This document shows positions 1 through 27,078 of a DNA stretch of 32,000 nt, piece after piece. The position numbers and the translations under genes were made by a program. The stretch is from NCBI RefSeq assembly GCF_007748075.1, contig NZ_CP036280.1:480001-512000 (forward strand). The letters run 5' to 3'. Under the pieces are notes generated by a model. That model was not told the origin of the DNA. It did not search any database and saw only the letters and a program-made list of their open reading frames with translations. Each line of letters starts with the position of its first letter. Position 1 is the first letter of the stretch. The DNA comes from Mucisphaera calidilacus. GTDB taxonomy: Bacteria > Planctomycetota > Phycisphaerae > Phycisphaerales > Phycisphaeraceae.

Positions 1-1141
<1,141 letters not shown>

Positions 1142-1145
<4 letters not shown>

Positions 1146-2767: not shown

Positions 2768-2785
2768 CAACACGGCATCTCGCGA

Positions 2786-3934
2786 TCAAACGACGCTGGC
2801 GTAATACGGCTCGACCCGCTCCAGAATCTTCTCGGCCTCCGCCTCAGTCTTGGTGTGACAGCAGATATACATCCCCTTGGGACCGACCGCGTCGAGCAGG
2901 GGAATCACCTCGTCAGGCTTGACGGTGATGGCCTGCACGCTCTTGCCGGCGGCCAGGATGCGCTTGTAAAGGTCGTACCACTTGGGGTGCCCGCCGCCCT
3001 CGTCGGCATAGGCGAACTTGGGTGTCCACTCCAGCGCCTGAAGGCTCTCGATGCTCAGGATGTGGTCGAGGTTGGGCCAGCACTCCTCGCCGTCGAGATG
3101 GTACATAGCGAAATCAAGGTAATCGCACTGCTGCGTGAGGGCGGGCAGCACGAAACGCTCGAACTGATCCGGCCCGAACATCGAGCAGGCGTCGCACTGC
3201 ACCTTCGCGGTCTTCCCCGGGCCGTAAGGCGAGAAGGCGCCGAAGAGGCTCCAGCCCTCATCGTCACGGACTAGACCGTAGAAATGATCGTACGCCTTGA
3301 AGTACGCCTCGTTGATCGCCATCACGCTGCGCTCGATCCACTCCGGGTTGTCGAACATGTCGAGCAGCAGCGTCTGCGGGTCACGCAGCGCCGCGAGGAT
3401 GTCGATGTTCTCGATGAGGTCCGGGATACCAACGAGATAACGGCCGTCAGCCAGCTCGATCTCGGCACGCACGATCTCGGTCAGTCGCCGGTAGGCAAAG
3501 CTCGTGGTATCCAGTTCCAGCGGCGGGTGGGTCTCCGGGTCGTCGATGCAGTGCTCGTACCAGACCGTGTTCTTGGAAAACTTCCATCGAGCACCCAGCA
3601 TCGCGGCCAGGTCGCCCGGCCCGATGCAACTGCACCACGATGCCGGCGGCGCTTCAGCGTAGAAACGCTTGCGGCTCATGCGGTACGCGTAGTGCCTGAT
3701 GCGCGTCGGCAGGCCGATCCACCAGTCCTCCGGATCCTTCGCCGGCGGCGGCTCGGGAAGATCATCGTCCGACGGATCGCGGTCCGCGGTCAGGCAGAAC
3801 ACCAACTCCTCCTGACGCCACCAGCGCTCGTGACGGGGCTTGACACGTGACCAGTCCTCGTGCCACGTCGGATGACTCGGATTGCCGGCGGGGGAGGGCT
3901 TGCTCATACGCGGCATTATGGTGCTATTCACCAA
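2786..3934 (-). CDS. Cytoplasmic protein of unknown function; tentatively uroporphyrinogen-decarboxylase-like (URO-D/MtaA-type TIM barrel) superfamily
   Basis: 382-aa ORF with gene-like composition and no signal peptide. 'DLIENIDILAALRDPQTLLLDMFDNPEWIE', 'CSMFGPDQFERFVLPAL' and 'MYHLDGEECWPNLDHILSIESLQALEW' resemble the conserved layout of URO-D-like proteins, from memory only. Start is ambiguous (ATG at 3934, 3916 or 3907). The CDS call is solid; the family call is weak. Confidence 0.6.
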   Translation of the reverse strand: MVNSTIMPRMSKPSPAGNPSHPTWHEDWSRVKPRHERWWRQEELVFCLTADRDPSDDDLPEPPPAKDPEDWWIGLPTRIRHYAYRMSRKRFYAEAPPASWCSCIGPGDLAAMLGARWKFSKNTVWYEHCIDDPETHPPLELDTTSFAYRRLTEIVRAEIELADGRYLVGIPDLIENIDILAALRDPQTLLLDMFDNPEWIERSVMAINEAYFKAYDHFYGLVRDDEGWSLFGAFSPYGPGKTAKVQCDACSMFGPDQFERFVLPALTQQCDYLDFAMYHLDGEECWPNLDHILSIESLQALEWTPKFAYADEGGGHPKWYDLYKRILAAGKSVQAITVKPDEVIPLLDAVGPKGMYICCHTKTEAEAEKILERVEPYYASVV

Positions 3935-3982
3935 GGCTGTCTGCGTGACTCCGTTGTTTCGTTGTAAGTTTCTTGTTCGCTG

Positions 3983-4001
3983 TCGTGTATCTCAAACACG
4001 A
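3983..4001. promoter_or_regulatory. Inverted repeat TCGTGT-N7-ACACGA in the divergent intergenic region between 2786..3934(-) and 4117..5934(+)
   Basis: Perfect 6-bp arms read directly from the sequence (tcgtgtatctcaaacacga). It lies in the only non-coding stretch between two divergent genes. Function is unproven. Confidence 0.25.
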
Positions 4002-4116
4002 TGACGTACCCGAGTGATCCGCATCGGGCCAGCAGGAACGCGAGGCACTGGTGAAACACCGATGATCCCCCTATCGTCTGCGCCCTCGCCATCAACCACA
4101 CCCCTCAGGAGTCGTC

Positions 4117-5934
4117 ATGCCGGCAGACAACGCGATCGAGACCCGCATCAGGAAGGGCCTGTTTGCGACGACAGACCCCTCGGCGAGCATCATCCTCTCA
4201 CCCAAACGTGTCGATGACCTTCGCGCCCTGCGTCGTCGCGACCCGCGCCTGGAACAGTACATCCGGCAGGTCCTGAACCGGGCCGAAGCCTGCCTGTCCG
4301 GCGATCCTCTGCCCGAGCAGTGGTACGGATCCGGCGATTACAGGCACATGCTCGAAACCAGCCGTGACGCGGTCCATCGCGTCACCCACCTCGGCCTGGC
4401 GTGGCAACTCACCGGCGAGCGTCGCTACAGCAACCGCCTCGCGGAAGTCGCACGCGCGGCATGCGCCATGGAATCATGGTGGCCGCGTCACTTCCTCGAC
4501 ACCGCCGAGATGATGACGGCCATGGCGCTCGCGCTGGCGTGGGGTGGCGACGGCCTGGACCCCTCCACACGCTCAAGGATCACCGAGGCACTGGTCGACA
4601 AGGGGCTGACGCAGGCTAGAGCGGCCTACCGCGACGACTGGCCCCACCTGCAATGGCCCACCGAAACCAGCAACTGGAACATCATCTGCAACACCGGCGT
4701 CATCCTCGCGAGCCTCGCCTGCCACCGCACGCACACCGACCTCGCCGTCGAACTGATCGCCAAGGCACGCCAGACACTCGTCAACGGGCTGAAGCCCTTT
4801 GCACCGCAGGGCAACTACCCCGAGGGCACCGTCTACTGGGCTTACGCAACACGCTACCTGGCCTTACTCGGCTCGGCGCTGCAAACCGCGCTGGGCGATG
4901 ACCTCGACGTACTCGCGATGCCCGGCGTTCGCCAGACCGCCGATTACCCCCGACGCATGCGCTCGCCAACGGGCCACACCGTCTGCTTCGGCGACCAGAT
5001 CTTCGAGGACACCGCCAGTCATCGTGGCGTCAGCCTCCTCTACTTCGCGCAGGCCTTCGACGACCCACGCCTCGCCGCCGCCGAGCACGAGCACCTGCAG
5101 AGCCACCCCCACGACGCCTCGCCGCTGCACGTCGCGTGGTTCACGCCCTACGAACCGGGTGCAACCAGCGGCCCGCTGCTCGACCTGCTCGAGGGAGAGA
5201 CCCCGCTCGCGATCATGCGCACGAACTGGTCCGACCCCAACGCGGCCTTCATGAGTGTCAAGGGCGGACGCAACCGTGCCAACCACAACAACCTCGACCT
5301 CGGCGTCATCGAGTACCACGCGCTCGGCGAACGCTGGGTCGTCGATCTCGGACGAGAGGACTACCGACTACCGGGCTACTGGGAGGTCGAAGACCCCGAC
5401 CATCCGGGACAACCGGGACGTCGCTTCGACTGGTTCCGTTGCTCGACCGCTGGGCACAGCCTGCCCACGATCGATGGCCGCCAGCAAGCGCTCGATGGCG
5501 AGGCCGCCTTGATCCCGCAAGCCGAGCAGGGGGGTATCGTCGGCTGCCGTGTTGACCTCACCGGCGCCTACGCGGGGCAGGCGCAACGGGTCGATCGCGC
5601 GGTGACCTTCGACACCGCGAGCGGGAGGGGCGAGGTGTGTGACACCGTCGTCTTGTCGGCTCCCGCAGAGGTGGTCTGGTGCCTCGTGATTGAAGCGGAG
5701 GTTCAGGTTCTATCCCAACGACGCCTGACCCTGAGTCAGAACGGCAAGCACATCACCCTCGATCTTGACCCGCCGGCCGGCGGAGAACTGCGGATTGAAT
5801 CGGCCCACCGGCAAGAGCCTGAGGCCCCGAACCACGGCGTCTCTCTTGTTCAGGTACGGCTCTGTGCCGAGGCAGGGGAATGGACTCTGCGATCGGCGCT
5901 CACGCCCAGCCCGCCCGATGTCAATCAGGGGTAA
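4117..5934 (+). CDS. Heparinase II/III-like polysaccharide lyase (alpha/alpha-toroid N-domain plus heparinase II/III C-domain); no signal peptide detected
   Basis: 605 aa. AGGAG sits 6 nt upstream of the ATG. The C-terminal block 'GGRNRANHNNLDLGVIEYHALGERWVVDLGREDY' matches the His/Asp-rich heparinase II/III-like signature. The N-terminal half is helical and Trp-rich. The N-terminus 'MPADNAIETRIRKGLFATTD' has no hydrophobic signal. Confidence 0.75.
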   Translation: MPADNAIETRIRKGLFATTDPSASIILSPKRVDDLRALRRRDPRLEQYIRQVLNRAEACLSGDPLPEQWYGSGDYRHMLETSRDAVHRVTHLGLAWQLTGERRYSNRLAEVARAACAMESWWPRHFLDTAEMMTAMALALAWGGDGLDPSTRSRITEALVDKGLTQARAAYRDDWPHLQWPTETSNWNIICNTGVILASLACHRTHTDLAVELIAKARQTLVNGLKPFAPQGNYPEGTVYWAYATRYLALLGSALQTALGDDLDVLAMPGVRQTADYPRRMRSPTGHTVCFGDQIFEDTASHRGVSLLYFAQAFDDPRLAAAEHEHLQSHPHDASPLHVAWFTPYEPGATSGPLLDLLEGETPLAIMRTNWSDPNAAFMSVKGGRNRANHNNLDLGVIEYHALGERWVVDLGREDYRLPGYWEVEDPDHPGQPGRRFDWFRCSTAGHSLPTIDGRQQALDGEAALIPQAEQGGIVGCRVDLTGAYAGQAQRVDRAVTFDTASGRGEVCDTVVLSAPAEVVWCLVIEAEVQVLSQRRLTLSQNGKHITLDLDPPAGGELRIESAHRQEPEAPNHGVSLVQVRLCAEAGEWTLRSALTPSPPDVNQG

Positions 5935-6043
5935 TCACCCCATTAATCGCCTTAATGAAGCATAAATGCATGTCATACATGCGAATAAGCGAATAATGGC
6001 CTTGTGGCCATGAAAAATCTGCGCAAATTCTCGTTCAGATCAC

Positions 6044-6154: not shown

Positions 6155-7216
6155 GTGGCCGTAACCGCATCCGACATCGCCCGAAAGCTAGGCATCTCAC
6201 GGCAGACCGTGAGCAAGGTGCTCGTCGGCGGCAAGACCAACGTCCGCGTCAGCGACCGCATGGCCACCCGAATCCAGAAGGTCGCCGACGAACTCGGATA
6301 CCGTCCCAACACCGCCGCCCGTCTCGTTTCCCAGGGCCGAAGAGGGTCGATCGACCTGCTGATGTCCACCGAACGCGGGTCCAGCGTGCTGCCCATCGCC
6401 CTGATCAACAGCATCCACGACAAGCTCATCGGCCTCGACCTCCAGCTGACCGTCACTAGGCTGCCCGACAGCCAACTCACCGACGCCAGCTACGTCCCCA
6501 AGATCCTGCGCGAGCACTGCGCCGACGGCATCCTGATCAACTACACGCACCACGTGCCCGTGGATCTGCCGCCCCTGCTCGACAAGCACAAGATCCCCGC
6601 CGTCTGGATCAACATCCGTCGCGAGAACAACTGCGTCTACCCCGACGAGGTCGCGGGGACGCGAAAAGCCACCGAGCACCTGCTCGGACTCGGACACACG
6701 AAGATCGCCTTCCACATCCTCTCCGAGCACGGTCACTTCAGCGAGTGCGACCGACGCCTCGGCTACGAGCTCGCCATGCGCGACGCGGGCCTGATGCCTC
6801 AGGTCGTTCGCGCCGGCGCACGCCCGCGTCAGGAGTGTGACGCCCACCCGCTTCAGGACGACCGGCTCGAGCGTGTTCTCGCCTGGCTCAAAAAACCCGA
6901 TCGCCCCACCGCCATCGTCGCCTACGCACCGATCGATACCGTCGTGATCGCCTACGCCGCCGCACAACTCGGCCTCACACTCGGACGCGATCTCTCACTC
7001 GTCGGCGTCAGCGACGACGGCGTCACCAACCCGCTGGGCATCGCGATGACCCAACTCGTCACGCCGCAGGCCGAACTGGGCGCCAACGGCATCCGGATGC
7101 TCATGCGGCAGATCGAAACACCGGCGCTGCCGCTGGACCCACGCCCCGTCGAGGTCCCGCTGACACTCGGGCACTCCACCGGTCGCCACGAATCAACCGT
7201 TCGGGGGGCACGATGA
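6155..7216 (+). CDS. LacI-family transcriptional regulator
   Basis: 353 aa with a GTG start. N-terminal HTH 'VTASDIARKLGISRQTVSKVLVG' is followed by a periplasmic-binding-protein-like sugar-binding fold ('ADGILINYTH', 'PTAIVAYAPIDTVVIAYAAAQLGLTLGRDLSLVGVSD'). Confidence 0.9.
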   Translation: MAVTASDIARKLGISRQTVSKVLVGGKTNVRVSDRMATRIQKVADELGYRPNTAARLVSQGRRGSIDLLMSTERGSSVLPIALINSIHDKLIGLDLQLTVTRLPDSQLTDASYVPKILREHCADGILINYTHHVPVDLPPLLDKHKIPAVWINIRRENNCVYPDEVAGTRKATEHLLGLGHTKIAFHILSEHGHFSECDRRLGYELAMRDAGLMPQVVRAGARPRQECDAHPLQDDRLERVLAWLKKPDRPTAIVAYAPIDTVVIAYAAAQLGLTLGRDLSLVGVSDDGVTNPLGIAMTQLVTPQAELGANGIRMLMRQIETPALPLDPRPVEVPLTLGHSTGRHESTVRGAR

Positions 7217-7280
7217 ACACACCGTCAGAGTCATTGTGTCCCGTGTCATCTCTGTTTACTCACGTTTTGGAGGATGAAAG

Positions 7281-8063
7281 ATGAAGACTCGCTCCGCCTC
7301 GTACCTGATCGCGGCCATCGCCGCACTCCCCGTCGCCTCGGCAACCGCCGGCGTTATCACCTTTGACCCCGCCGACGGATACACCCTCGGCAGCTCTCTC
7401 GTCGTCCATCCCGACTGGGCCGGCGACGGGTCGCTCTACAGCGTCACGTCACTCGGTGGCGGCAACGGCGCCGCCCAGAGCGCCGCCACCAACCAGACCA
7501 ACTTCGCCAACAACCGCTACACCCCCGACGCCGGCTTCCTCGGCACCCCCGACACCACCACCGCCGGCAATGTCTACGACTTCAGCTTCCAAATCCGCAA
7601 CGACGCCTCGCTCGGCTCGTTCGACTGGGGCGTGGCCCACCGCATCCGCATCGGCGGCAGCGACTCGGCCCCGATGATCCAGTTCCAGATCTTTGACCTC
7701 GGCGTCGTGCAGTACAACAACGGCGGCGGCTCCACCAGCGTCACCAATATCAACGACGCCCGCTTCGATATGGACGACGCCACCGGACGCTTCATCACCG
7801 TCGAGGGCTCCATCGACATCGATGCCGGCACCTACGACCTGAGCTTCGACGGCGTGGTCCAGGGAACCGGGCTGGGGCTCATGAACGTCCCGTCCGACTT
7901 CGGCCAGATCACCCTCCAGTGGGGACCGAGCAACCTCGCTCCCGACTACCGCCAGATCAGCCTCGACAACCTGGCGATCGACGCCGTACCCGTTCCCGAG
8001 CCCGCGAGCTTCGGCCTGGGACTCCTCGGCATGAGCATCGTCGCGCTGCGTCGCGCTCGCTGA
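7281..8063 (+). CDS. Secreted PEP-CTERM protein with a ~200-aa beta-sandwich/lectin-like domain of unknown function (paralog A)
   Basis: GGAGGA RBS 6 nt upstream of the ATG. Signal peptide 'MKTRSASYLIAAIAALPVASATA'. C-terminal 'VPVPEPASFGLGLLGMSIVALRRAR' is PEP, then a TM helix, then an Arg cluster. The body is paralogous to 8187..9332. Confidence 0.85.
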   Translation: MKTRSASYLIAAIAALPVASATAGVITFDPADGYTLGSSLVVHPDWAGDGSLYSVTSLGGGNGAAQSAATNQTNFANNRYTPDAGFLGTPDTTTAGNVYDFSFQIRNDASLGSFDWGVAHRIRIGGSDSAPMIQFQIFDLGVVQYNNGGGSTSVTNINDARFDMDDATGRFITVEGSIDIDAGTYDLSFDGVVQGTGLGLMNVPSDFGQITLQWGPSNLAPDYRQISLDNLAIDAVPVPEPASFGLGLLGMSIVALRRAR

Positions 8064-8186
8064 ACCAACAGCAGGGGGGTAAGGCCCAACGGCCTCGCCC
8101 CGCTTTGTGAGACACGTAATACGTTCGTCACCTCGTGTTCAGTCCCTCACTCGGATCCGATTCACCCCACAGGCTGGAGAACATCG

Positions 8187-9332
8187 ATGACCGCTAACGC
8201 CACACGCACCGCACTCGCCACCGTCGGAGCCTGCCTCGCCCTCGGCTCCAACGCGTCCGCCGGACTCGTCACCTTCGACCCCGTCGACTGGTACTTCCTC
8301 GGTACCTCGCTCGTCGTCCACCCCGAATGGGCCGGCGAGGGCACGCTCTACTCCATCGTCTCGCTCGGGAACGACAACGGCGCAGCCCAGAGCGCCGCGA
8401 CCAACCAGACCAACTTCGCCAACAACCGCTTCACCCCCGACGCCGCCTTCCTCGGCACCGACGACACGACCACAGCCGGCAATCTCTACAAGTTCGCGTT
8501 CCAACTCCGCAACGATCAGCAGGCCTCCACCGACGGCACCGATGACCAGTGGGGACTCGCCCACCGCATCCGCATCGGTGGCACTGATTCCGTGCCCATC
8601 GTCCAGTTCCAGATCTTCGACAACGGCCGCGTCCAGTACAACGACGGCGGCGGCTCGGTCAACGCCGTCAGCGAGAGCGGCAATAACTTCGACCTCGACG
8701 ACGCCACCGGACGCTTCATCGACGTCGAGGGATACATCGATATTGATGCCGGCACCTACCAGATCTCCTTCGACGGCGTCCTCCAGGGCACCGACCTCGG
8801 CCTCTACAGCAATCCCTCGGATTTTGGCCAGGTCACCTTCCAGTGGGGCCCCAGCAACAGCGCCCCCGACTACCGCCAGATCAGCATCGATAACCTCGAG
8901 ATCGCCGCCGTCGATGACCTCCCCGGACTCGCGGGCGACTTCAACATGAACGGCATCCTCGACGCGGGCGACATCGACCTGCTCGTCGAAAACCTCGGCG
9001 ACCCGGCCTACGACCTCAACGGCGACGACGTCGCCGACCAACTCGACATGGACCTACTCGTCACCGACGACGACTTCCTCGGCACGCTCTACGGCGACGC
9101 CAACCTCGACAAGAGTGTCGACCTGCTCGACCTCTCCGCGCTCGCCAGCAACTTCGACGCAGCATCCGGATGGGCCGGCGGCAACTTCAACACCGACACA
9201 CAGGTTGACCTGCTCGATCTCTCGATGCTCGCCTCCAACTTCGGCAACACCCCCGCGGCACCCGAACCGACCTCCGCCGCGATCGCCGCTTTGATCCTTG
9301 GTCTTGCCACGCTCCGCCGACGTATCGGCTGA
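8187..9332 (+). CDS. Secreted protein: lectin-like domain (paralog B) plus two dockerin-like Ca-binding repeat pairs plus PEP-CTERM
   Basis: GGAGAA RBS. Signal peptide 'MTANATRTALATVGACLALGSNASA'. The N-domain aligns with 7281..8063 ('NGAAQSAATNQTNFANNR[YF]TPDA'). C-terminal 'GDFNMNGILDAGDIDLLVENLG..DLNGDDVADQLDMDLLV' and 'GDANLDKSVDLLDLSALASNF...NFNTDTQVDLLDLSMLASNFG' are followed by 'APEPTSAAIAALILGLATLRRRIG'. Confidence 0.85.
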   Translation: MTANATRTALATVGACLALGSNASAGLVTFDPVDWYFLGTSLVVHPEWAGEGTLYSIVSLGNDNGAAQSAATNQTNFANNRFTPDAAFLGTDDTTTAGNLYKFAFQLRNDQQASTDGTDDQWGLAHRIRIGGTDSVPIVQFQIFDNGRVQYNDGGGSVNAVSESGNNFDLDDATGRFIDVEGYIDIDAGTYQISFDGVLQGTDLGLYSNPSDFGQVTFQWGPSNSAPDYRQISIDNLEIAAVDDLPGLAGDFNMNGILDAGDIDLLVENLGDPAYDLNGDDVADQLDMDLLVTDDDFLGTLYGDANLDKSVDLLDLSALASNFDAASGWAGGNFNTDTQVDLLDLSMLASNFGNTPAAPEPTSAAIAALILGLATLRRRIG

Positions 9333-9434
9333 TCCTCCTCCTGCCCGTGCGGTCTCGCGGCGTGTAAGCAGCGTCGCGGGACCGGGGGCTTACGCAAGAA
9401 GACCCGAATGCCAACCCAGCAAGGACACGCAACC

Positions 9435-10271
9435 ATGAACCATCAGCGACGCGCCTTCACGCTCATCGAACTCCTGGTCGTGATCTCGATTATCGCGTTG
9501 CTGATCGGGATCCTCCTGCCCGCGCTCGGCGCGGCCCGAGCCTCGGCACGCAACACCCAGTGCCTCTCCAACCTACGCCAGGTCGGCATCGGCATGTACG
9601 CCTACCTGACCGACAACAAAGACCAGATCGTCCCCGGACGATCCATCACACCCGGCACCGGCGGCGACGTCCTCGAGGTCCACTACGCCGCCATCCTCTC
9701 GCAGACCGGCTACGGCGTCGCCGACGACGTCCTCGACAACCCCGATGACCTCTCCGGAAACACCATGTTCCGATGCCCCGAGGGACTCGACGAGGTCAAG
9801 GTGCCCGGCGATCCCGCGGCGCCCCAAAGCCAGACGGACGAGGAGGGGCTCAAGGGCTGGCGGGCCTTCTTCGCCTACAGAGGCCAGACCCGCGCACGCG
9901 TCGATACCTGGTATGGCGTCAACACCATGCAGATGGACAACGCCGTCGGAGCCTACTACTTCGAGTCCTTCCCCATGTCCGACGTCACGCCCCAACAACC
10001 CATGACTCAGAAGATCACCAAAATCCACGAACCCTCCAAAACCGCGATGATCTACGACGGCATCGAGGTTCACAACGGCAACTTCAACCGACTCAGCCTC
10101 CGCCACGGCGGGCAGTCGTCCATGAATGTTCTGCTGGCAGACGGACACGTCGAGGGCTATCAGGAAAGCGAAGTCCCCGCGCCCGGCACCGGGATCGGAA
10201 GCCCCTGGCCAACCTCCATCGGCAACCTTGGCGACTTCCCGGCCCTCAACTGGCGCATCAACAAGCCCTGA
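9435..10271 (+). CDS. Prepilin-type N-terminal cleavage/methylation domain protein, DUF1559 / H-X9-DG family (type II secretion pseudopilin-like)
   Basis: '[35 protein letters not shown]' is the class III signal plus the hydrophobic pilin helix. C-terminal '[21 protein letters not shown]' resembles the H-X9-DG processing-associated motif. An alternative in-frame ATG lies at 9408. Confidence 0.9.
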
Positions 10272-10327
10272 CCCACTCCACCGACACAGCACGATCAACA
10301 CGCCGCACGCACCCGAAAGGTAGACCT

Positions 10328-12136
10328 GTGCCCGCCTATCGTCTCCTCGCACTGCTCCTCATCGTCGTCATGGCCGCACCGTCGTTCGCTCAGAACACGG
10401 CCGAAAACGCCCGTCACATCGGCATCGCCCGCCAGCCCATCCTTGGCGGCGAAGCCGCGAGCGATGCTCGCCTTGAGATGCTCAGAGATGACCAGACCGA
10501 CGGCCATGGCCACGGCTTCCGACTCACCACCGTCAAACAGCCCGCACACCACTACAGCATCGAGGTACGCTTCCTCCTCGACGCGGGCTTCAAGGCCGGC
10601 GACGTCGTCCACGCCACCTTCTGGGCACGCTCACGCGACGCCGCCCGCTACGAAACCTCCGAAGCCCTCACCCTCTTCCGCGTCCAACGCACCGGCCCGC
10701 CCTGGGAACGCACGCTCTACCGCGAGTGGAGCGTCGGACCGCACTGGCGAAAGTGCACGATCGCCAGCCGCGTCGACAAAGACATCCCCGCCGGCCAGAT
10801 CGCCGCCGTCTTCTCCGGCGGATACCCCAGACAGGCCATCGAGGTGGCCGGCCTCACGATCACCAACTACGGGCCCGACGCCGACCCCGACACGCTCGAG
10901 CAGTCCACCTTCGAATACGTCGGCATGGAACCCGATGCACCCTGGCGGCGAGACGCACTCGAACGCATCGAGAAACACCGCAAGGCCGAGATCCCGCTAC
11001 GCGTCGTGGACCGCGACGGACGCCCCGTGCCCAACGCACGCGTCGAAGCGATCCTCTCCCGACACGACTTCGACTTCGGCGTCGCCATCAGCGCGACTTG
11101 GCTCAATGAAAACTGGGACACGCCCGAAGGACGACGCTACCGCGAGGAACTCACACGCAACTTCAACGCCGTCGCCATCGAGAACGCACTGAAGTGGTCC
11201 TGGTGGGAACGCGAGCCGGAGACCGCACTACGCACCCTTGACTGGTTGCACAAGGAGACCGACCTCCGGATCCACGGCCACGTCCTCGTCTGGCCCGGTC
11301 TCGAGAAGTTCCGCACCACCGACGCCCAACCTCTCTGGGAGGCAGCCCAGAAAAACCCCGACATGCTCCGCGCACGCATCGACGCCCACATGCAGTCGGT
11401 CCTGCTCGCCACCCGGGGCATGATCGACGTCTGGGACGTCGTCAACGAGGCCTACAACCAGAACGAGATCATCCACTTGCTCGGCGACGAGATGATCGTC
11501 CACTGGTTCCAGCGTGCACGACGCTTCGCCCCCAAAGCGACCCTGATCTACAACGACTTCGCCCTGCTCGGCCAGAGCGGGAGAAACAAGATCAAGCAGC
11601 AGTTCGTCTACGACCTCGTGAAGAAGGCACGCGACGCCGGCGCACCGATCGACGCCATCGGCCTCCAGGCGCACCTCGGCAGCAGCTACACCCCACCCGA
11701 GCGCGTGCTCGCCATTATCGACAAGTTCGCCGAGCTGGACGTCAACATCCAGATCACCGAGTACGACATCTCGATCATCGATCCCGTCGTCGCCGAGCAG
11801 TACACCCGCGACCTCATGATCGCGGTCTTCAGCCACCCGGCGGTCACCACCTTCCAGGGCTGGAACTACTGGTCGGCCACGCCGACGTGGATGCCCGAAG
11901 CCGCCTACTTCGCCGATGACTGGTCTCTGCAACCGATCGGCCGCGCCTACGTCCAACTCGTTCAGAACGAGTGGCAGACCCACGAGAAGCTCCGGACCAA
12001 CCGCCAGGGCGTCGCGCGACTCCGAGGCTTCAAGGGCGACTACGACGTCCACGTTCTCACGCCAGACGGCAGACAATCGCTGCACGCCGTCCGGCTCAGT
12101 GATGACAACACCGCTATCGACCTCGTCGTGGAGTAA
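10328..12136 (+). CDS. Secreted GH10 endo-1,4-beta-xylanase with an N-terminal CBM4_9/CBM22-like module
   Basis: GTG start at 10328 preceded by GAAAGG. Signal peptide 'VPAYRLLALLLIVVMAAPSFAQ'. GH10 hallmarks: 'AIENALKWSWWE', 'IHGHVLVWPG', 'WDVVNEAYNQNE' (acid/base Glu), 'GLQAHL', 'IQITEYDIS' (nucleophile Glu). The ORF-track extension 9773..10327 overlaps the previous gene and is Arg/Pro-rich junk. Confidence 0.9.
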   Translation: MPAYRLLALLLIVVMAAPSFAQNTAENARHIGIARQPILGGEAASDARLEMLRDDQTDGHGHGFRLTTVKQPAHHYSIEVRFLLDAGFKAGDVVHATFWARSRDAARYETSEALTLFRVQRTGPPWERTLYREWSVGPHWRKCTIASRVDKDIPAGQIAAVFSGGYPRQAIEVAGLTITNYGPDADPDTLEQSTFEYVGMEPDAPWRRDALERIEKHRKAEIPLRVVDRDGRPVPNARVEAILSRHDFDFGVAISATWLNENWDTPEGRRYREELTRNFNAVAIENALKWSWWEREPETALRTLDWLHKETDLRIHGHVLVWPGLEKFRTTDAQPLWEAAQKNPDMLRARIDAHMQSVLLATRGMIDVWDVVNEAYNQNEIIHLLGDEMIVHWFQRARRFAPKATLIYNDFALLGQSGRNKIKQQFVYDLVKKARDAGAPIDAIGLQAHLGSSYTPPERVLAIIDKFAELDVNIQITEYDISIIDPVVAEQYTRDLMIAVFSHPAVTTFQGWNYWSATPTWMPEAAYFADDWSLQPIGRAYVQLVQNEWQTHEKLRTNRQGVARLRGFKGDYDVHVLTPDGRQSLHAVRLSDDNTAIDLVVE

Positions 12137-12142
12137 GACCGC

Positions 12143-14044
12143 ATGCCGTCCGTTCGCCGAGCTCTGATGATCATGACGCTGATGGCATGCAGCGGCGCAA
12201 CCGCCCACGCAGCCACCGGCTTCAGCGACGACTTCGAGCACGGCGGCCAGCTGCACATCACCGGCGACGGCTGGCGTGCCGAAACCTGGGAAGAGGTGCC
12301 CGGCTCGGATCGGCTACGCGTGACACACGCATCGCGTGCCGGCGACTACGGCGTGCGCTTCTCGCTCTTCCGCAACGACGAGTACGTCGAGACCAGCAAC
12401 CGCACCGAGCTCAAGAAAGACACACGCCCGGGCGACACGTTCGGCATGGGCAACAACGGCGACGAACGCTACTACCGCTGGAACATCTTTATCCCCAACG
12501 ACTACCAGGTCGATACCCACCCCGACGCCTTCGAGATCGTCGGCCAGCTCCACCGATCACCCGATGGCGGACAGGCGTGGAAGAGCCCGCCCATCGACCT
12601 CGCCATCAAGGGCGACCAGTGGCACATCAACATCAACAACGACGGAGCCGGCTACGACGCCGACCTCGGCACCATCCAGAAAGGCGTCTGGACCGAGTTC
12701 GTCCTCCACACGATCTGGTCGCCGGGCAGCGACGGCCAGACCACGCTCTACCGCAACGGCGCCGAGGTGTTCAGCCAGCAGGGCCCCAACACCTACGGCA
12801 GCCACTACAGCGACAACGACTTCTTTCTCAAGGTCGGCGTCTACAAGCCCTACTGGCGCGACACCGACACCCCCTACACCGTCAAGTCCAGTACCTGGCA
12901 ACGAACCTTCGTCTACGACGACGTCCTCGTCGGTGACGCCGGCGAATCCCCGCAGTCGATGCGCTCCGAACAACCCGCACGGCCCATCGAGATCCATCGC
13001 TACGGCACCCACGAGCACGGCGCCGACGCACGCGTCGTCGGCAACGGCTCCGATCGCCACCGCTACAACACCGGAGGATCAACACGCCTGGAGAGCCGCG
13101 GCAGCGACTGGAGCGGAGCGCAGTACGCCACCTACCTGCGCTTCGACCTCAGCGATTCGGCCCTCCCCATCGTCGCCGACGCCACCCTTCAACTCGTCCT
13201 CGAACTCGATCAGAACTACCCCCTCGACGTCTACGCCGTGCCCGACGCCTTCACCGGACGCGAGGACGGCTACGGCCTGCCCGAGTTCGGCGAAACCGAA
13301 TGGACCGAGGGCAACGGCTCTTGGAGCCTCGCGACCGGCACCGAGATCAATGGCGATCGCGCCCCGGGTTTTGACGAAACCACCGGCTTGCCCGACACCG
13401 CGGTTCTCGAGTTCATCGGGACCATCGCGACCACCGGCGGACTGCGCGATGATTCAATGGTCGAACTGACCTCCACAGCACTCATCGACGCCGTCGCCGC
13501 CGACACCAACGACCAGATCACCCTCGTGATCGTCGCCCGCGACACCAGCGGCAGCGGCACCTGGATCCACAGCAAGGAATCCGATACCGATCTCGCGCCG
13601 AGCCTCGAAATCATCACCCAGGCGCCCGAGCTGCCCAGCGACTTCAACCTCAACGGCGCCGTTGACGTCGACGACGTCGACATCCTCCTCGCCAACCTCG
13701 GCCACCCGGGCTTCGACCTCACCAACGACCGCCGCTCCGACCTCGCCGACTTCGACGCCATCGTCACCGGCGACGCTTTTCTCGGCAGCCTCCTCGGCGA
13801 TATCAACGGCGACCTGGCCATCGACCTGCTCGACCTGAGCATCCTCGCCGCCAACTTCGACACCAACGCCACCGGCACGCTGCCCTACACCCTGGGCAAT
13901 CTCAACGCCGATCACGCCATCGACCTGCTCGACCTGAGCATCCTCGCCGCCAACTTCGGCAGGACCGCTGTGCCCGAGCCCGCAGCCACGGCCCTGCTCG
14001 CCGCACTCCCCACTCTCCTCCGACGACGCCGGAGCCACGCCTGA
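12143..14044 (+). CDS. Secreted multidomain polysaccharide lyase: concanavalin-like lyase domain (PF14099-like, heparin lyase I / glucuronan lyase superfamily) plus DNRLRE-like beta-sandwich plus two dockerin-like pairs plus PEP-CTERM
   Basis: Signal peptide 'MPSVRRALMIMTLMACSGATAHA'. The lyase-like core is 'NRTELKKD...YYRWNIFIPNDY...FEIVGQLHRSPDG..SPPIDLAIKGDQWHININ...FFLKVGVYKPYW'. 'STRLESRGSDWSGAQYATYLRFDLSDS' resembles the DNRLRE domain motif. The C-terminal module runs from 'DFNLNGAVDVDDVDILLANLG' to 'AIDLLDLSILAANFGRTAVPEPAATALLAALPTLLRRRRSHA'. It starts 6 nt after the GH10 stop. Confidence 0.8.
   Translation: MPSVRRALMIMTLMACSGATAHAATGFSDDFEHGGQLHITGDGWRAETWEEVPGSDRLRVTHASRAGDYGVRFSLFRNDEYVETSNRTELKKDTRPGDTFGMGNNGDERYYRWNIFIPNDYQVDTHPDAFEIVGQLHRSPDGGQAWKSPPIDLAIKGDQWHININNDGAGYDADLGTIQKGVWTEFVLHTIWSPGSDGQTTLYRNGAEVFSQQGPNTYGSHYSDNDFFLKVGVYKPYWRDTDTPYTVKSSTWQRTFVYDDVLVGDAGESPQSMRSEQPARPIEIHRYGTHEHGADARVVGNGSDRHRYNTGGSTRLESRGSDWSGAQYATYLRFDLSDSALPIVADATLQLVLELDQNYPLDVYAVPDAFTGREDGYGLPEFGETEWTEGNGSWSLATGTEINGDRAPGFDETTGLPDTAVLEFIGTIATTGGLRDDSMVELTSTALIDAVAADTNDQITLVIVARDTSGSGTWIHSKESDTDLAPSLEIITQAPELPSDFNLNGAVDVDDVDILLANLGHPGFDLTNDRRSDLADFDAIVTGDAFLGSLLGDINGDLAIDLLDLSILAANFDTNATGTLPYTLGNLNADHAIDLLDLSILAANFGRTAVPEPAATALLAALPTLLRRRRSHA
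13817..13958 (+). repeat. Intragenic perfect 43-bp direct repeat (13817-13859 and 13916-13958), period 99 bp, encoding the two 'AIDLLDLSILAANF' half-dockerin segments
   Basis: gccatcgacctgctcgacctgagcatcctcgccgccaacttcg occurs twice, read directly from the sequence. Confidence 0.9.
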
Positions 14045-18146: not shown

Positions 18147-19439
18147 ATGACCACATGGATCTGCACTACACCCGACAAGCCCTGGCAGGACCACTCCGGC
18201 AGCCTCGCCAACGCCGCCGACAGCGACTCCAACCTCCAGCTCACCGACACCCGCGACCAGACCATCCTCGGCTTCGGCGGATGCTTCAACGAACTCGGCT
18301 GGGAAGCCCTCTCATGGCTCGATCCCGACCAACGCGACCAGATCATCCGCGACCTGTTCGACCCCGAGGACGGCTGCCGCTTCTCGTTCTGCCGCGTGCC
18401 CATCGGCGCCAGCGACTACGCCGTGAGCTGGTACAGCCACAACGAGACCGAAGGCGACCTCGACATGAACGCCTTCAACATCGACCGCGACCACCAGTAC
18501 CTCATCCCCTACATCAAGGCCGCCATCGCCCAGCAGCCCGACTTGCGCCTCTTCGCCTCGCCCTGGAGCCCGCCGACCTGGATGAAACAGCCCAAGGCGT
18601 ACAACTACGGCACCCTCGTCTGGAACGAGCAGAACCTCAAGGCCTACGCCCTCTACCTCCTGAAATTCGTCCAGGCCTACCAGCAACTCGGCCTCGACGT
18701 CCGACAGGTCCACGTCCAGAACGAACCCAACTCCGACCAGAAATTCCCCTCCTGCCTCTGGAAGCCCGAGCAGTTCGCCGAGTTCATCGGCGACTACCTC
18801 GGCCCGCTCTTCGAACGCGAAAACAACCCCTGCGAGATCTGGGCCGGCACCATCGAACGCCCGGGCTACGACACCTGGCCCAACCGGATCCTCAGCGACG
18901 CCAAGGCTCAACGCTACGTCGCCGGCCTCGGCTTCCAGTGGGCCGGCAAGGGAGCCGTGCAAACCACCCACCTCGCCTGGCCCGACGTCCCCATCATCCA
19001 GACCGAGAACGAGTGTGGCGACGGGCAGAACACCTGGGACTACGCCCGCTACGTCTTCAGCCTCATCCACCACTACATGATCAACGGCACCTGCGCCTAC
19101 ACCTACTGGAACATGGTCCTCCCCGCCGGCGGACGAAGCACCTGGGGATGGCTCCAGAACAGCATGATCACCGTCGACCCCGAAACCCGCGCCGTCACCT
19201 ACCAGCCCGAGTTCTACGTCATGAAGCACCTCACACGCTTCATCGACAACGGCGCCACGCGACGCGGCCTCGCAGGCCCCCTCGCCGGCAACGCCCTGGC
19301 CTTCGAGAACCCCGGCGGGTCCACCACGCTCCTCATCGCCAACCCCAGCGACAACCCGCGAACCCTCGCCGTGGACATCAACGGCCAGTCACTCAGCGCA
19401 ACCCTCCCCGCGCAGAGCTTCAACACAATCGTGGCCTGA
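18147..19439 (+). CDS. Glycoside hydrolase family 30 (glucosylceramidase/xylanase-type TIM barrel plus beta-sandwich); no signal peptide
   Basis: GAGGA sits 7 nt upstream of the ATG. 'ILGFGGCFNELGWEAL', 'VPIGASDYA', 'LFASPWSPPTWMK', 'VHVQNEPN' (acid/base region), 'IIQTENECGDG' (nucleophile region). The N-terminus 'MTTWICTTPDKPWQDH' has no signal. Confidence 0.85.
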   Translation: MTTWICTTPDKPWQDHSGSLANAADSDSNLQLTDTRDQTILGFGGCFNELGWEALSWLDPDQRDQIIRDLFDPEDGCRFSFCRVPIGASDYAVSWYSHNETEGDLDMNAFNIDRDHQYLIPYIKAAIAQQPDLRLFASPWSPPTWMKQPKAYNYGTLVWNEQNLKAYALYLLKFVQAYQQLGLDVRQVHVQNEPNSDQKFPSCLWKPEQFAEFIGDYLGPLFERENNPCEIWAGTIERPGYDTWPNRILSDAKAQRYVAGLGFQWAGKGAVQTTHLAWPDVPIIQTENECGDGQNTWDYARYVFSLIHHYMINGTCAYTYWNMVLPAGGRSTWGWLQNSMITVDPETRAVTYQPEFYVMKHLTRFIDNGATRRGLAGPLAGNALAFENPGGSTTLLIANPSDNPRTLAVDINGQSLSATLPAQSFNTIVA

Positions 19440-19444
19440 AACCT

Positions 19445-20578
19445 CTAATTCCCCTCACGCGCCTGCGCCACCACGCGGTTCATCAGGGTCTGCCACGAGA
19501 CCCCCGCCGATTCGCCACGCAACCGCTCCACAACCGCATCGAAGGCAGGCTCGAAATACGCCGCCTGCTCGAACATCTCCAGCGACGACCGCGGGTCATA
19601 GAGCATCCCGGGCTGATAACCCGGCAGACCCGCCGCCGCACGCTCATGATCCAGCCGAACCCGCGAGTGACGCCACTCACGACGTTCCTTCTCACCACGC
19701 GCGTAAGGCAGAACATAAAGCACCGACTTGCGGATCGAAGCGCCCTCAGGCGACGTCCACGCGTACAGATCATCCGCACCCTCACCCAGGAGCATCGCGA
19801 TCTCCAGCGGCGGCCTCAACGCACTGCAGTGGTACGTCAGCGTGTCACGCTCCTCAAGATCGTAACTCGTCCCGTCAGGCCGCAGGCCATGCACGACAAA
19901 ACGCTCAACCGACGCAACCACCTCATCCAGCCAGTCGTCACAATCCAGAATCCGCGCACACACCGTCAACAGCCTCAGACGCTTGACGTAGCGGTTGCTG
20001 AAACGAGTCGCCCCCTGAGCACGCTCAAGGTGCGTCAACGCGAGTTCCTCCACCCAGCGATCCACAGCAGCCCGATCCTCGTCATCAAACGCCGGCCGCA
20101 AGGCCTCGTACGCAACCAGCAGCGGGTACAGCTTGTTCTCATTGACGTCATTCCCCGTAATCACATACGCCCCCGACCACGCCACAACACAACGCCCAAG
20201 CGTCGCCGCAGACCGCTCATCACCCGTCAACTGCCAGTCACGCACCAGCCAGGCCACATCACCCATCTGGCTCAGCGAACGACACGTCGCAACGCGCCTC
20301 GGGTCCGTGTGCACCAGCCCCTCATAATGAATCACCCGCAACGGCGTCGGCGCCATCCCACGCAGCCGTTCCGCACGCTCCGCGACCTCGTCGATCACCC
20401 CCCGCGCCTCGGGAAGATCCGCCGCCACACCGCGCAGCGTCGCGACCTGTGCACCCGTCAAAGGCAGCACCACCGGGATGTCAAACTCGCCCACACCCTC
20501 GTCAGCGCCACCGACCCGAGTCACAGCAAGAACCACGGCCAGAACCATCAGTACACAGAGCCATCGGGAACACGTCAC
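19445..20578 (-). CDS. Secreted alginate-lyase-family-like (alpha/alpha-toroid polysaccharide lyase) protein
   Basis: The ORF reaches 20632 (GTG). The GTG at 20578, with GAGG 6 nt upstream, gives a good signal peptide, 'MTCSRWLCVLMVLAVVLAVTRVGGA'. 'LRVIHYEGLVHTDPRR...AWLVRDWQLTGDERSA...VVAWSGAY' resembles the alginate_lyase (PF05426-like) N-terminal layout. The family call is from memory and is moderate at best. Confidence 0.55.
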   Translation of the reverse strand: MTCSRWLCVLMVLAVVLAVTRVGGADEGVGEFDIPVVLPLTGAQVATLRGVAADLPEARGVIDEVAERAERLRGMAPTPLRVIHYEGLVHTDPRRVATCRSLSQMGDVAWLVRDWQLTGDERSAATLGRCVVAWSGAYVITGNDVNENKLYPLLVAYEALRPAFDDEDRAAVDRWVEELALTHLERAQGATRFSNRYVKRLRLLTVCARILDCDDWLDEVVASVERFVVHGLRPDGTSYDLEERDTLTYHCSALRPPLEIAMLLGEGADDLYAWTSPEGASIRKSVLYVLPYARGEKERREWRHSRVRLDHERAAAGLPGYQPGMLYDPRSSLEMFEQAAYFEPAFDAVVERLRGESAGVSWQTLMNRVVAQAREGN

Positions 20579-20644
20579 ACAGCACCTCACGCGTAAAACA
20601 GTCAGCAGAACACACATTCTACCGACCACCACGCGCGACCCGCT

Positions 20645-23600
20645 TCACGCCACCCGCCTGCCGCCGCGACGCAGCACCCACCCGCCGGCCAGCAGCACGG
20701 CCAGACCACCCGGCTCCGGGATCACCGTGTTGTCAAAACCGAACGTCGACGCCAGCACCGACAGGTCGAGCAGGTCCACAAAGCCGTCCGCGTTGAAGTC
20801 ACCTCCCTGATACGACGTCGCCACACCATTGAAGCCCCCCGCGAGAACCGACAGGTCCAGCAGATCCACACGCCCGTCGAGGTTTGCATCGCCCGACGCC
20901 GTCCCGAACAGACCCGTCAGCCACAACGCCAGATCCTGACCATCAACAGCGGCATCCTCGTCGAGGTCAAAAACCGGATCGCCCGAACCGATCGCCTGAT
21001 ACAGCAACTCAAGATCCGACGCCGCCAGCACGCCATCGCCATCAAAGTCACCCGTCAACGCCAACGCACGGATGATCCCGAGCGTCGCGAGGTCACTCAG
21101 GTCCCACAACGACGTGTCGATGCCCGACGTGTCAAACCACCCCGTCACGCTCGCGCCCGGGTCGATATTCAGGATCTGAAATTCAGTCCCCGCCGCCGGC
21201 CGGCCGCCGACTAACTCGATCGCGAGCGAGCCGTTGAGGATCAGCGTCGCCGTATCATCGGTCAGGAACCGGTCGTAAGGCTGGAAAGGTAACTCGTTCA
21301 CCTCGATCAGCAAGACCGCCTCCTCCAACATCTCGTAGGTGTACCCGTACGTCAGGAAGAACGAGCCCGCAAAGCTGTTCACAGAGTCACCCGGCCGACC
21401 GCCAGGCGACACCACACCACCCTCCTGCAGATACGTCAGCGGACTCTCATCATCCGCGATATCAATCGACCCGATGTTGATCCGACCGCCCGTGTGCACC
21501 AGCGTGTGAACGAGGGAACTGAAAGTACGAAACGACAACTGGCTGTCCGCGTGCGTGACATGGATCTCAAGCTCTGTCCGCGAGTCGTAATAGGAAGTAT
21601 CAAAGTCATCGATACTCACGTCCGCGTTGGCGGCGATCTCGATGATCCCGCTCATCGGCGCAACCTGGGAGATCACCGTCCGACCCGCGAGCGTCAGCGT
21701 GTCGTCACCCGCGTCCATGTACAGCGTGCTGAACAGCGTGACGTCTTCGAGGATGTTGAACCCGCTCCACGCGTAGACGTCGCCATCAACCTCGCCCCCG
21801 CGGATCTGGCCATCCTCGAGGTAGACCTCACCGAATCCGAGGTACCCCACCGGGCCCTCGCCATCCAGCGACCCGCCCAGGATCACCGCGTCATACAACT
21901 CCAGCGTGTCTCCTTCAAAGTAACCACCCCGGTTATCAAACGCCTCCCCCGAGACCTGCGTATACGAGGCAAATACCGACCCCCGATTGATGAACGCAAA
22001 GTCCGTGGCATAGACCGTATCGCTCTCAAGCGTCACGAAAGCGTTGTCCAGACTGCCCGTGAACGACCCCTCCTCACCCGGCTGGATGTTCCCCAACTCC
22101 GCGTAGACCGGGTCCGCTTCATTCGGGACGCTCGAACCCGCGGGCAGCGTCACCAGACCCGAGATACCCGATATCTCCAGGCTGCCGAAGACCTCCATCG
22201 AACCGAGATTCGTGATCGCCGCGCCCGTGTCGCTCAGCAGATACCCCGAACTGTCAAAGTCGAACGTCGACGACACGTTCTCACCCAGAACCAACCGGTC
22301 TCCGGAATTCAACGCCTCCACGCCATCACTCAGATCCACCGAACCCGTGCCCGAGATCACCACGCCACCCGGACCGAGCCGCAGAGGCCCGAAACCGCCC
22401 GTCGCGGAGATCGATCCCTGATCCAGTACGATCTCACCCACAAGCTCGAGCGTGCCGTCGATGCTGAAGACCGTGCCGTTGCGGACCGTCACGTCGACCA
22501 GCGTCACGTCCGTCGCCTCGATACTCCCCACCACGCCGCCACGCACCTCAACCCACTCCAGCACCGCGCTGAGATAACCGCCCTCGTTGTCGATGACCGT
22601 GTCCCTGATGTCCGGCTGCCCATCAGACAGACCCACCGTGCCCTCGATCGACCCGCGGTTGATGAGCCCCACCGCGCCGCCCGGGCCGCCACCAAACGCG
22701 TCGATCGTCCCCGCGTCCAGCCAGGACAGGCTCCCCTCATTCTCGAAGATGATCGAGTCCTCGCCCAGCGTCCCCGCGTCCAGACCCGACCCGATCTCCA
22801 CCGTAACACCGGCACCGAACGTCACCCGGCTGCCAGGATTGTCGGCAAACAATGTCACGTCATAAAACTCAATGAACGTACTCCCCCGGAAGTTCAGGTC
22901 GTTGTTGATGATGATCGTGCCACCCTCAAACGCCGTGTACCCGTTGTCCTCGATCTCCAGCACGCCGTCGATCACCAGCTCACCGAGCTGTGCGTAGGTG
23001 CTCGGCCCGAGCGTCACGTTCCGGAGCGTGCCGTCCAGGTAAGCATCAGACACAAGGTTCAGACGCGCGTTCTCAACCGTCGATGACGACATATCAAAAA
23101 GACCGTCGACCGTAATGTCACCCCCGCGGATCGTCGACTCGATCACCGTCAGGTCGAAGGCATTCCCCTGAGCCTGCCGGAAATCGAACGTCCCGTCGCT
23201 GAGAATCGCGTCGCCCTCGAAAGCCCCAATCAGCGTAAAACCGGCCTCCACATCATCCGACGAGCCCGAGGGATTGATCTCCCCGCCGCCCAGATAGACA
23301 TACGTCGCCTCGATCCGGGCCCGCAGATCGTCGCTACGAATATCGTACAGTTCCAACTCGTCCGAATCGCCCAGCATCCTGATCAGCACCGACGCGTCAC
23401 CCGAGCCGTCGGGCGTGCCACCCAACTCGTAGATCGAGGCATACGTCGATCCGCCCCCCGTGCTGCTGAACACGACCTCCGCCGATTCATCGATGTAGAG
23501 CGTATTGAACTCAACCGTATCCAGACCCTCCACACGCAAACGACCCGCCACCTCAAGGTCGCTCGTACTGAGCTGCGCGACACCACCCCCGCCCGGCTGC

Positions 23601-26800: not shown

Positions 26801-27020
26801 GCGCTTCTCCAATCGATTGAACGGTTGTTGATCCGACAGCCAATGCCCCCGTGCCACGCGTCACCGCACGACACGCCTACAGGATAGCCGCTCAGCACCG
26901 GTTCCCACCCATCTTCTCCCGATGATTCCACGAAAACCTCACCACGGCCTCTCTCATCTCACCAGACCACCCCGCTTCACACCCCATGCCCTCAGACACG
27001 CAACCTCGCCCGAAACATGC

Positions 27021-27048
27021 TTGTCCTCCTCTCCTGATCTGCTATAAA
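27021..27048 (+). promoter_or_regulatory. Candidate promoter TTGTCC-N16-TATAAA for the 27079 gene
   Basis: Hexamers at 27021-27026 and 27043-27048 with a 16-nt spacer, about 30 nt upstream of a strong RBS (GGAAAGGAG) and the ATG at 27079. Confidence 0.35.
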
Positions 27049-27078
27049 CAGTGTTCACCTGAGGAAAGGAGAAAACTC

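Follow-up and report, generated by a model that had tools for sequence, protein, structure and literature searches.

Planctomycetota play a major part in the degradation of algal polysaccharides, and it is poorly understood how they place their enzymes on and around the cell. Here, we analysed a stretch of 32,000 nucleotides (in its full length referred to as the window) from the 3.49-Mb genome of Mucisphaera calidilacus Pan265, a member of the class Phycisphaerae; the window proteins correspond to QDU70548-QDU70553. The locus is a polysaccharide-utilisation region, and in or beside it lie the genes of three secreted proteins that end in the same C-terminal unit, hereafter called the cassette. 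Across its family the cassette has a simple layout, in which one or two dockerin-like domains stand 5-8 residues ahead of a PEP-CTERM signal. The unit had been noticed in an original prediction drawn from the DNA alone, which took it for a fixed fusion and proposed a role in surface display.

Results and discussion

The first carrier is a polysaccharide lyase of 633 amino acids (positions 12143-14044, plus strand), which is identical to QDU70552.1, a 'heparin lyase I family protein', and consists of a signal peptide, a PF14099 domain (Pfam Polysacc_lyase, E = 7.7e-32), a DNRLRE/CBM96 domain (CBM96, 3.6e-5; NCBIfam DNRLRE, 2.9e-8) and the cassette. The second carrier, the lectin-like paralogue B (381 amino acids; 8187-9332, plus strand), is identical to QDU70549.1, is labelled 'PEP-CTERM protein-sorting domain-containing protein' in UniRef and joins a signal peptide and a ConA-like jelly-roll cargo to the cassette. 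For this cargo, AlphaFold2 (AF2) predicted a concanavalin-like jelly roll with a predicted local distance difference test (pLDDT) score of 86.5, and Foldseek returned the lectin-like domain of the sialidase BT_1020 (7e-9), clostridial neurotoxins (BoNT Hc) and PL7 lyases. The third carrier is a giant secreted protein (20645-26857, minus strand). Its open reading frame (ORF) of 2070 codons begins with GTG, and Met20 is the likelier start, which leaves about 2050 amino acids and agrees with the size first given for it. A Pfam scan of the giant protein yielded nothing besides Dockerin_1; a Gly-rich stretch lies near its N-terminus, and an orthologue of 2034 amino acids (P0172), 59% identical over 1919 amino acids, has the same cassette at its C-terminus. 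By inspection, all three carriers have signal-peptide-like N-termini, namely MTANATRTALATVGACLALGSNASA in B, MPSVRRALMIMTLMACSGATAHA in the lyase and MFEARLVVCGVSTRALLAAFVAGSLVSPTRA in the giant protein when read from Met20.

The translations of 8934-9332, 13637-14044 and 20645-21052 (minus strand) are three collinear C-terminal tails of 132-135 residues each. In BLASTP comparisons computed with composition correction, the tail of B was 54% identical to that of the lyase (E = 6e-34) and 48% identical to that of the giant protein (1e-29), with 42% identity between the lyase and giant tails (5e-24). The three-way alignment stays collinear over about 132 residues and contains 47 invariant columns, and a hidden Markov model (HMM) built from the three tails, run against all six reading frames of the window, matched them (199-209 bits) and no further site. 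Alignment, BLASTP and HMM thus bear out the predicted collinear module on three secreted proteins; its boundaries in B and in the giant protein were given correctly, and only the start in the lyase lies one codon earlier, at 13637 instead of 13640. That the carriers are otherwise unrelated holds as well, since comparisons between their cargo parts gave no significant match (best E 0.12-2.1). As DNA, the copies have a mean column identity of 72% in a three-way alignment without long identical tracts; this divergence rules out recent gene conversion among them and marks the copies as old duplicates.

Each window cassette holds four 12-residue EF-type loops of the pattern D/N-x-D/N/T-x-D/N-x3-D/N/A-x2-D, two per domain and each followed by a helix. 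The first domain, with loops 1 and 2, is compact at about 45 residues; the second, with loops 3 and 4, has about 52 residues and two near-identical helices (VDLLDLSxLAxNF). In the lyase, dockerin-like domain 1 spans 13637-13771 on the plus strand (loops 13640-13675 and 13715-13750) and domain 2 spans 13793-13957 (loops 13799-13834 and 13898-13933), the latter with duplicated IDLLDLSILAANF helices. The cassette of B (8934-9332, plus strand) has its two domains at 8934-9068 and 9090-9245, and that of the giant protein (20645-21052, minus strand) at 20912-21052 and 20741-20899. An AF2 model of the lyase tail based on 67 aligned sequences reached a mean pLDDT of 92.1 and a predicted template modelling (TM) score of 0.77, with the helices of domain 1 at module residues 11-19 and 36-44 (pLDDT 95-97). 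When this model was compared with the PDB by Foldseek, 25 out of 25 matches were dockerins, led by 2y3n_B (target-normalised TM score 0.81, root-mean-square deviation (rmsd) 1.9 A, 38% identity).

Profiles of the two halves gave the same answer against PDB sequences. Dockerins ranked first for the first half (2y3n_B, 2.2e-8; NagH dockerin, 1.7e-6) and for the second half (2y3n_B, E = 7.6e-6, positions 50-108). A generic EF-hand or calmodulin-like nature of domain 1 was ruled out, as calmodulin, calbindin and centrin ranked behind the dockerins with E>=0.006. Aligned with each other by hhalign (95.8%, E = 7.8e-9), the two halves of the cassette prove homologous. The PDB profile matches, hhalign and Foldseek together confirm the two dockerin-like EF-hand pairs of the original prediction. 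Judging from the loops, the cassette would bind up to four Ca2+.

In the window cassettes, the second domain is followed after 5-7 residues by [VAI]PEP, 13-15 hydrophobic residues and an Arg cluster; the individual tails read VPEP, APEP or IPEP, and their clusters (RRRR, RRR or RRGGRR) lie 2-3 residues ahead of the stop codon. The PEP-CTERM-type signal of the lyase (13970-14044, plus strand) consists of VPEP, 13 hydrophobic residues, RRRR, SHA and the stop codon, and AF2 placed a helix over residues 117-132 of this tail; the signals of B and of the giant protein lie at 9258-9329 and, on the minus strand, at 20648-20722. The lyase tail gave weak matches to the tails of PEP-CTERM protein families in NCBIfam. 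TIGR02595 was matched by 57 of 77 homologous tails at E<=0.1 (best 5.6e-8), and the other families frequently matched by these tails were mostly PEP-CTERM proteins, again via their tails. Matches to MYXO-CTERM, Synerg-CTERM, CGP-CTERM, LPXTG and IPTL-CTERM were weaker and rarer, and these classes were rejected. At the level of the family, the cassette tail thus clearly belongs to the PEP-CTERM class.

Two further proteins bring the PEP-CTERM-type proteins in the window to five, and neither has dockerins. The curated cut-offs are 16 bits for TIGR02595 and 20.7 bits for PF07589, a family originally built from paralogues of Rhodopirellula baltica (PMC1569441). Lectin-like paralogue A (260 amino acids; 7281-8063, plus strand) exceeds the latter with 21.6 bits, is named 'PEP-CTERM sorting domain-containing protein' by NCBI and joins a B-like cargo directly to the PEP-CTERM signal; beside B, it is a natural control. 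The other, a protein of 253 amino acids (26986-27747, plus strand) with the tail AVAVPEPASALLLGLATLALRRRSA, scores 20.5 bits and thus stays barely under the cut-off; it is unrelated to A and B, and its gene is divergent from that of the giant protein, with starts about 130 bp apart. Five such tails within 32 kb fit the observation of Haft et al. (2006; PMC1569441) that genomes with the domain tend to have many copies of it. Another Mucisphaera protein (P0009) was among the cassette matches.

How common is the cassette beyond this window? We searched 1.84 billion cluster representatives (50% identity) exhaustively with the profile and obtained 35,684 matches at E<=1e-3, of which 5190 reached E<=1e-10 and 61 reached E<=1e-30; the looser counts take in any dockerin-like repeat. 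This search was far more informative than a word-indexed protein search with the module, in which short fragments predominated and the best relatives were absent. Among the best 150 representatives, 98 carry the whole cassette at the C-terminus of proteins of 139-2141 residues, and a [VIAT]PEP tail is present in 91 of the 150. In the 98 cassette representatives, the first and last Asp of the loops are kept in 94-98, the three positions of P-E-P are conserved in 98, 87 and 95, respectively, the LLDLSxLAxNF face is almost invariant on both symmetric helices of dockerin 2, and a hydrophobic N-terminal stretch is present in 74. The last dockerin helix ends 5-8 residues before PEP in 61 of 85 representatives, and the hydrophobic run behind it measures 12-16 residues in 84 of 86. 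Dockerin_1 was matched at E<=1e-5 in 29 of 91 cassette-bearing representatives. Cargoes in these 91 include chondroitinase B, GH10, GH16, GH25, GHL10, sulfatase, SASA esterase, S8 and trypsin-like peptidases, beta-lactamase-fold, amidase_2, BNR and FG-GAP domains.

A genome scan with the module pattern, restricted to one genome per species, yielded 48 loci, none from Mucisphaera. Almost all belong to Planctomycetota (Pirellulales, Planctomycetales, Phycisphaerae, Tepidisphaeraceae); the exceptions, one from Gemmatimonadota and one from Verrucomicrobiota, are partial matches. These loci hold 73 ORFs that match the module, 50 with a PEP-CTERM-like tail and 18 in the full two-dockerin form, and many consist of the second dockerin and PEP-CTERM only. 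Cassette genes are often adjacent, with four each in L008 and L029; the neighbourhood of the protein P0003 contained nothing relevant. The cassette is thus widespread in Planctomycetota and carried on many different cargoes.

The original prediction of a fixed fusion does not survive these comparisons. Paralogue A and the cargo of B are 68.5% identical over 238 amino acids (BLASTP, E = 9e-115), so that B amounts to A with a double-dockerin insert. Among 26 database homologues of the lectin-like cargo we found four types of tail, namely PEP-CTERM only, one canonical dockerin with PEP-CTERM, a divergent 'GDYDDSG...NNWG' dockerin-like pair with PEP-CTERM, and two dockerins with PEP-CTERM, the last in B only. 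Orthologues with zero, one, two or divergent dockerin-like units contradict a fixed fusion, as do the many proteins of related genomes that combine the second dockerin alone with PEP-CTERM.

A gene set of LacI regulator, short form, long form, DUF1559 pseudopilin-like protein and GH10 enzyme (window 6155-12136) is kept in two related Planctomycetota metagenome-assembled genomes. In L055 (2813-8687) the order is that of the window; in L056 (7840-14444) the pseudopilin-like gene stands ahead of the pair and the long form ahead of the short. In the long paralogue, each genome has a different dockerin insert, made up of two dockerins, one, or the divergent GDYDDSG...NNWG pair. Varying inserts and four tail types leave PEP-CTERM as the constant element. 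The conserved trait is therefore the presence of one dockerin-bearing and one dockerin-free copy, not of any particular dockerin.

Exosortase-type sorting is present in the phylum. The genome of R. baltica encodes 12 PEP-CTERM proteins along with the EpsH homologue RB2461 (PMC1569441), and tblastn with an exosortase seed from the Desulfovibrio vulgaris plasmid pDV led us to four planctomycete plasmid exosortases, from Aquisphaera giovannonii, Isosphaera pallida, Planctomyces sp. SH-PL62 and Paludisphaera borealis (L050-L053). All four plasmids share an exopolysaccharide locus in which the exosortase stands beside EpsI and a tyrosine autokinase. The conserved cysteine of these exosortases lies in ACNGLSML (CNG, not CSG), so that the motif C[SAT]G is unsuited as an exosortase screen. 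A multi-pass membrane ORF with C[SAT]G in the related loci, at first an exosortase candidate, turned out to be an O-antigen-polymerase-like protein. A database search with the four plasmid exosortases returned only close Isosphaeraceae relatives.

With little more than even confidence, we lean towards the view that the cassette is a C-terminal sorting and anchoring unit which combines Sec export, exosortase-type sorting and dockerins that act as a Ca2+-stabilised adaptor. The N-terminal signal peptide, for which signal-peptide-like N-termini are seen in the sequence, would direct export through Sec. Following the definition of PEP-CTERM signals, the C-terminal helix and Arg cluster would then retain the protein in the cytoplasmic membrane with its cargo outside, and an exosortase-family enzyme would process it at the PEP motif and release it to the cell surface or into the polysaccharide matrix. 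Outside the cytoplasm, the dockerin-like pair would bind up to four Ca2+ and form a compact, rigid adaptor beside the anchor point, which would space and orient the cargo and may bind a partner. Surface display of cassette proteins, as originally proposed, can reasonably be inferred.

Several observations weigh against this interpretation. All three window tails stay below the curated PEP-CTERM cut-offs: the B tail scores 13.0 bits with TIGR02595 and 12.9 bits with PF07589, the giant tail 11.4 bits with TIGR02595, and the lyase tail has no match to TIGR02595. The hmmscan check that had been suggested for this signal therefore fails on the individual tails and succeeds at family level with the 57 of 77. 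The same check with Pfam Dockerin_1 (PF00404; gathering cut-off 22.9 bits) is positive for the giant tail (36.4 bits in 3 stretches); the B tail misses the cut-off by 0.1 bit (22.8 bits) and the lyase tail falls short of it (15.1 bits, module residues 52-104). An HMM built from the four planctomycete exosortases found nothing in the six frames of the window or in the 48 related loci (750 kb), and Pfam models of cohesin and exosortase had no match in the window ORFs scanned, as the original prediction had stated for both genes. We found no experiment in any organism on the fate of proteins combining dockerin and PEP-CTERM. The weakest step is the role as adaptor and spacer, which leaves the LLDLSxLAxNF face of dockerin 2 unexplained; from its sequence, this helix face could be a binding surface.

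What else could the cassette be? It is possible, in our view unlikely, that the tail is a plain membrane anchor which stays unprocessed and, within the periplasm, tethers enzymes to the outer face of the cytoplasmic membrane, the dockerin pair serving as their pedestal. The sub-threshold scores of the three window tails would agree with such a tether, which would also suit the periplasmic digestion of imported polysaccharide, an idea summarised in PMC8882080, and a locus with ABC importer genes and intracellular-type glycosidases. However, a mere hydrophobic anchor would not need the almost invariant P-E-P, 12-16 hydrophobic residues are short for a stable anchor and typical of PEP-CTERM, and the homologous tails match PEP-CTERM models specifically. 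A giant adhesin-like protein would, moreover, make more sense outside the cell.

Slightly less credible to us is a 'planctosome'-like cohesin-dockerin assembly. Other loci of the genome would encode scaffold or anchor proteins with cohesins that receive the dockerins, and lyase, lectin-like protein and giant protein would come together in a surface complex, with PEP-CTERM either as its anchor or for transit only. In fold and sequence the domains are indeed nearest to functional cohesin-binding dockerins, and dockerin 2 combines a two-fold duplication, typical of dockerins with a dual binding mode, with its nearly invariant helix face. The conserved pairs of paralogues with and without dockerins would fit one docked and one free form. 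Yet cohesins are greatly outnumbered by non-cellulosomal dockerins, none of the window ORFs scanned contains a Pfam cohesin, and a protein anchored covalently or in the membrane has no obvious need to dock. The short distance of 5-8 residues between dockerin end and anchor leaves little room for a cohesin, and orthologues differ in how many dockerins they have and of which type, which would be unexpected for a specific lock-and-key pair. Precedents from other bacteria speak in favour of docking: a tandem double dockerin of Clostridium thermocellum binds a cell-surface cohesin (PMC12484212), and cohesin/dockerin pairs were proposed for another planctomycete family (PMC6461901).

We give a somewhat smaller chance to the wider notion that the cassette is the docking half of an undescribed surface-assembly system found throughout Planctomycetota, in which exosortase-anchored dockerins would recruit cohesin-like or different partners, or attach via Ca2+ to an acidic exopolysaccharide matrix. 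In that case, the system would arrange lyases, lectin-like binders and giant fibres in a layer on the cell that captures polysaccharides, and the gene pairs with and without dockerins beside DUF1559 and GH10 would represent two functional states of one machine. Chance similarity between Asp-rich, low-complexity stretches of a GC-rich genome, suggested by the Asp/Leu-rich and internally repetitive tails, is excluded as the origin of the module by the pairwise E-values of 5e-24 to 6e-34, the roughly 132 collinear residues, the 5190 representatives at E<=1e-10 and the confident AF2 model.

Relation to known systems

Cellulosomal dockerins (PF00404; 2y3n_B of Bacteroides cellulosolvens; 1ohz/2ccl of C. 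thermocellum Xyn10B) resemble the cassette domains in their length of about 50-60 residues, in their two duplicated Ca2+ loop-helix segments and in their position at the C-terminal end of secreted carbohydrate-active enzymes. In contrast to these, the cassette dockerins stand in tandem and are followed by a membrane sorting signal, no cohesin partner is known for them or seen in the window, domain 1 is compact (about 45 residues), and the host, an aerobic marine planctomycete, does not belong to the cellulosome-forming Firmicutes. In sortase/LPXTG- or SLH-anchored components of Firmicute cellulosomes, the anchored protein bears the cohesins and the enzymes bear the dockerins. Such components share with the cassette the combination of a C-terminal sorting signal with modules of the cohesin/dockerin type and the placement of enzymes at the surface; here, however, the dockerin-bearing enzyme itself has the sorting signal.

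The double dockerin dDoc_0689 of C. thermocellum (PDB 8x39) likewise forms one unit of tandem dockerins on a non-cellulase cargo, an S8 protease, and was proposed to attach this enzyme to the cell surface (Chen et al. 2024, summarised in PMC12484212). Unlike in the cassette, no PEP-CTERM follows behind it, and the superposition of the lyase tail model on 8x39 was poor (rmsd 11.6 A over 136 columns), hence the mutual arrangement of the domains differs from that in the cassette model. The same source calls double dockerins rare in cellulosomal bacteria, whereas they are common here. The 'planctosome' of the freshwater family Nemodlikiaceae, itself a hypothesis (Andrei et al. 2019; PMC6461901), comes close in that non-cellulosomal dockerins on Planctomycetota hydrolases were proposed to build a surface enzyme complex, but differs in having identified cohesin modules, an anchor protein with a lamin-tail domain, peptidase cargo and no PEP-CTERM. 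With PEP-CTERM/exosortase sorting (PMC1569441) the cassette shares the PEP motif, the helix, the basic C-terminal cluster, the signal peptide, the occurrence in several copies per genome and an exopolysaccharide-rich organism. Untypical are the sub-threshold scores of the window tails and the dockerin directly upstream, which is not discussed in the literature searched.

Is the combination new? Among about 8 million open-access papers and preprints we found none that mentions 'dockerin' and 'PEP-CTERM' together, and 'dockerin' with 'exosortase' gave a single co-mention, in a paper on methanotrophic archaea. NCBIfam contains no model that covers the whole cassette. Database names have already been given to its parts ('dockerin type I domain-containing protein', 'PEP-CTERM sorting domain-containing protein'), and this piecewise annotation, along with the 98 of the best 150 representatives, makes the architecture common in public databases. 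The original suggestion of an uncharacterised combination is thus correct as far as the name of the unit and the absence of a co-mentioning paper are concerned, and goes too far for an element that is abundant and whose parts are annotated automatically. In short, the dockerin/PEP-CTERM combination is unnamed and, to our knowledge, unstudied experimentally, yet abundant and annotated piecewise.

A great many secreted enzymes of Planctomycetota bear the cassette, in at least 98 distinct clusters at 50% identity among the 150 best matches. The window itself contributes little that is new, and its interest lies chiefly in the two paralogues, one with and one without dockerins. The role of non-cellulosomal dockerins has been a standing question since they were first catalogued, and A and B (68% identity, in an operon conserved in related genomes) are a clean test system for it.

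Genomic context

Besides the three carriers, the locus encodes a LacI regulator, paralogue A, a DUF1559 protein, a GH10 enzyme, an ABC binding protein, two permeases and a GH30 enzyme, further an alginate-lyase-like protein on the minus strand, the 253-amino-acid PEP-CTERM protein and a second DUF1559 protein. Both DUF1559 genes (9408-10271, plus strand; 27827-28816, minus strand) are of the prepilin type, combine N_methyl with SBP_bac_10 and directly adjoin dockerin/PEP-CTERM genes. In the related loci (DUF1559 loci L005, L007, L011, L017, L024, L025, L026, L030 and L045), 10 of 16 DUF1559 genes have a cassette gene less than 700 bp away, in every case on their own strand. Random placement gave a mean of 5.9 and reached 10 in 223 of 10,000 trials, a modest enrichment.

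Long ORFs, as are typical of GC-rich DNA, mislead at two places in the window. The ORF of 787 codons at 9773-12136 (plus strand) overlaps the first DUF1559 gene, and its first approximately 190 residues are rich in Arg and Pro. As a GH10 domain and a signal-peptide-like stretch (LLALLLIVVMAAPSFA) appear only behind these, the true start is probably near 10.3 kb. The other, an ORF of 813 codons at 18155-20596 (plus strand), is without a family match and overlaps both the GH30 gene (18147-19439) and the alginate-lyase-like gene (19445-20632, minus strand). At the head of the locus, a protein of 605 amino acids (4117-5934, plus strand) matched no Pfam family at E<=0.001, and by eye no signal peptide stood out at its N-terminus.

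Strain Pan265 grows as a viscous colloid, enclosed in a dense extracellular matrix, and its genome contains one N-acyl amino acid cluster (PMC8882080); this gene class was reported to adjoin PEP-CTERM/exosortase genes (PMC7293339, citing Craig 2011). On the exosortase plasmids, the tyrosine autokinase of SH-PL62 is annotated merely as 'AAA family ATPase', and replicon cluster 171 is common to three of the four. Just upstream of the conserved gene set in L056, positions 1-5973 hold Zot and Rep_trans genes, and this region looks like an integrated filamentous-phage-like element.

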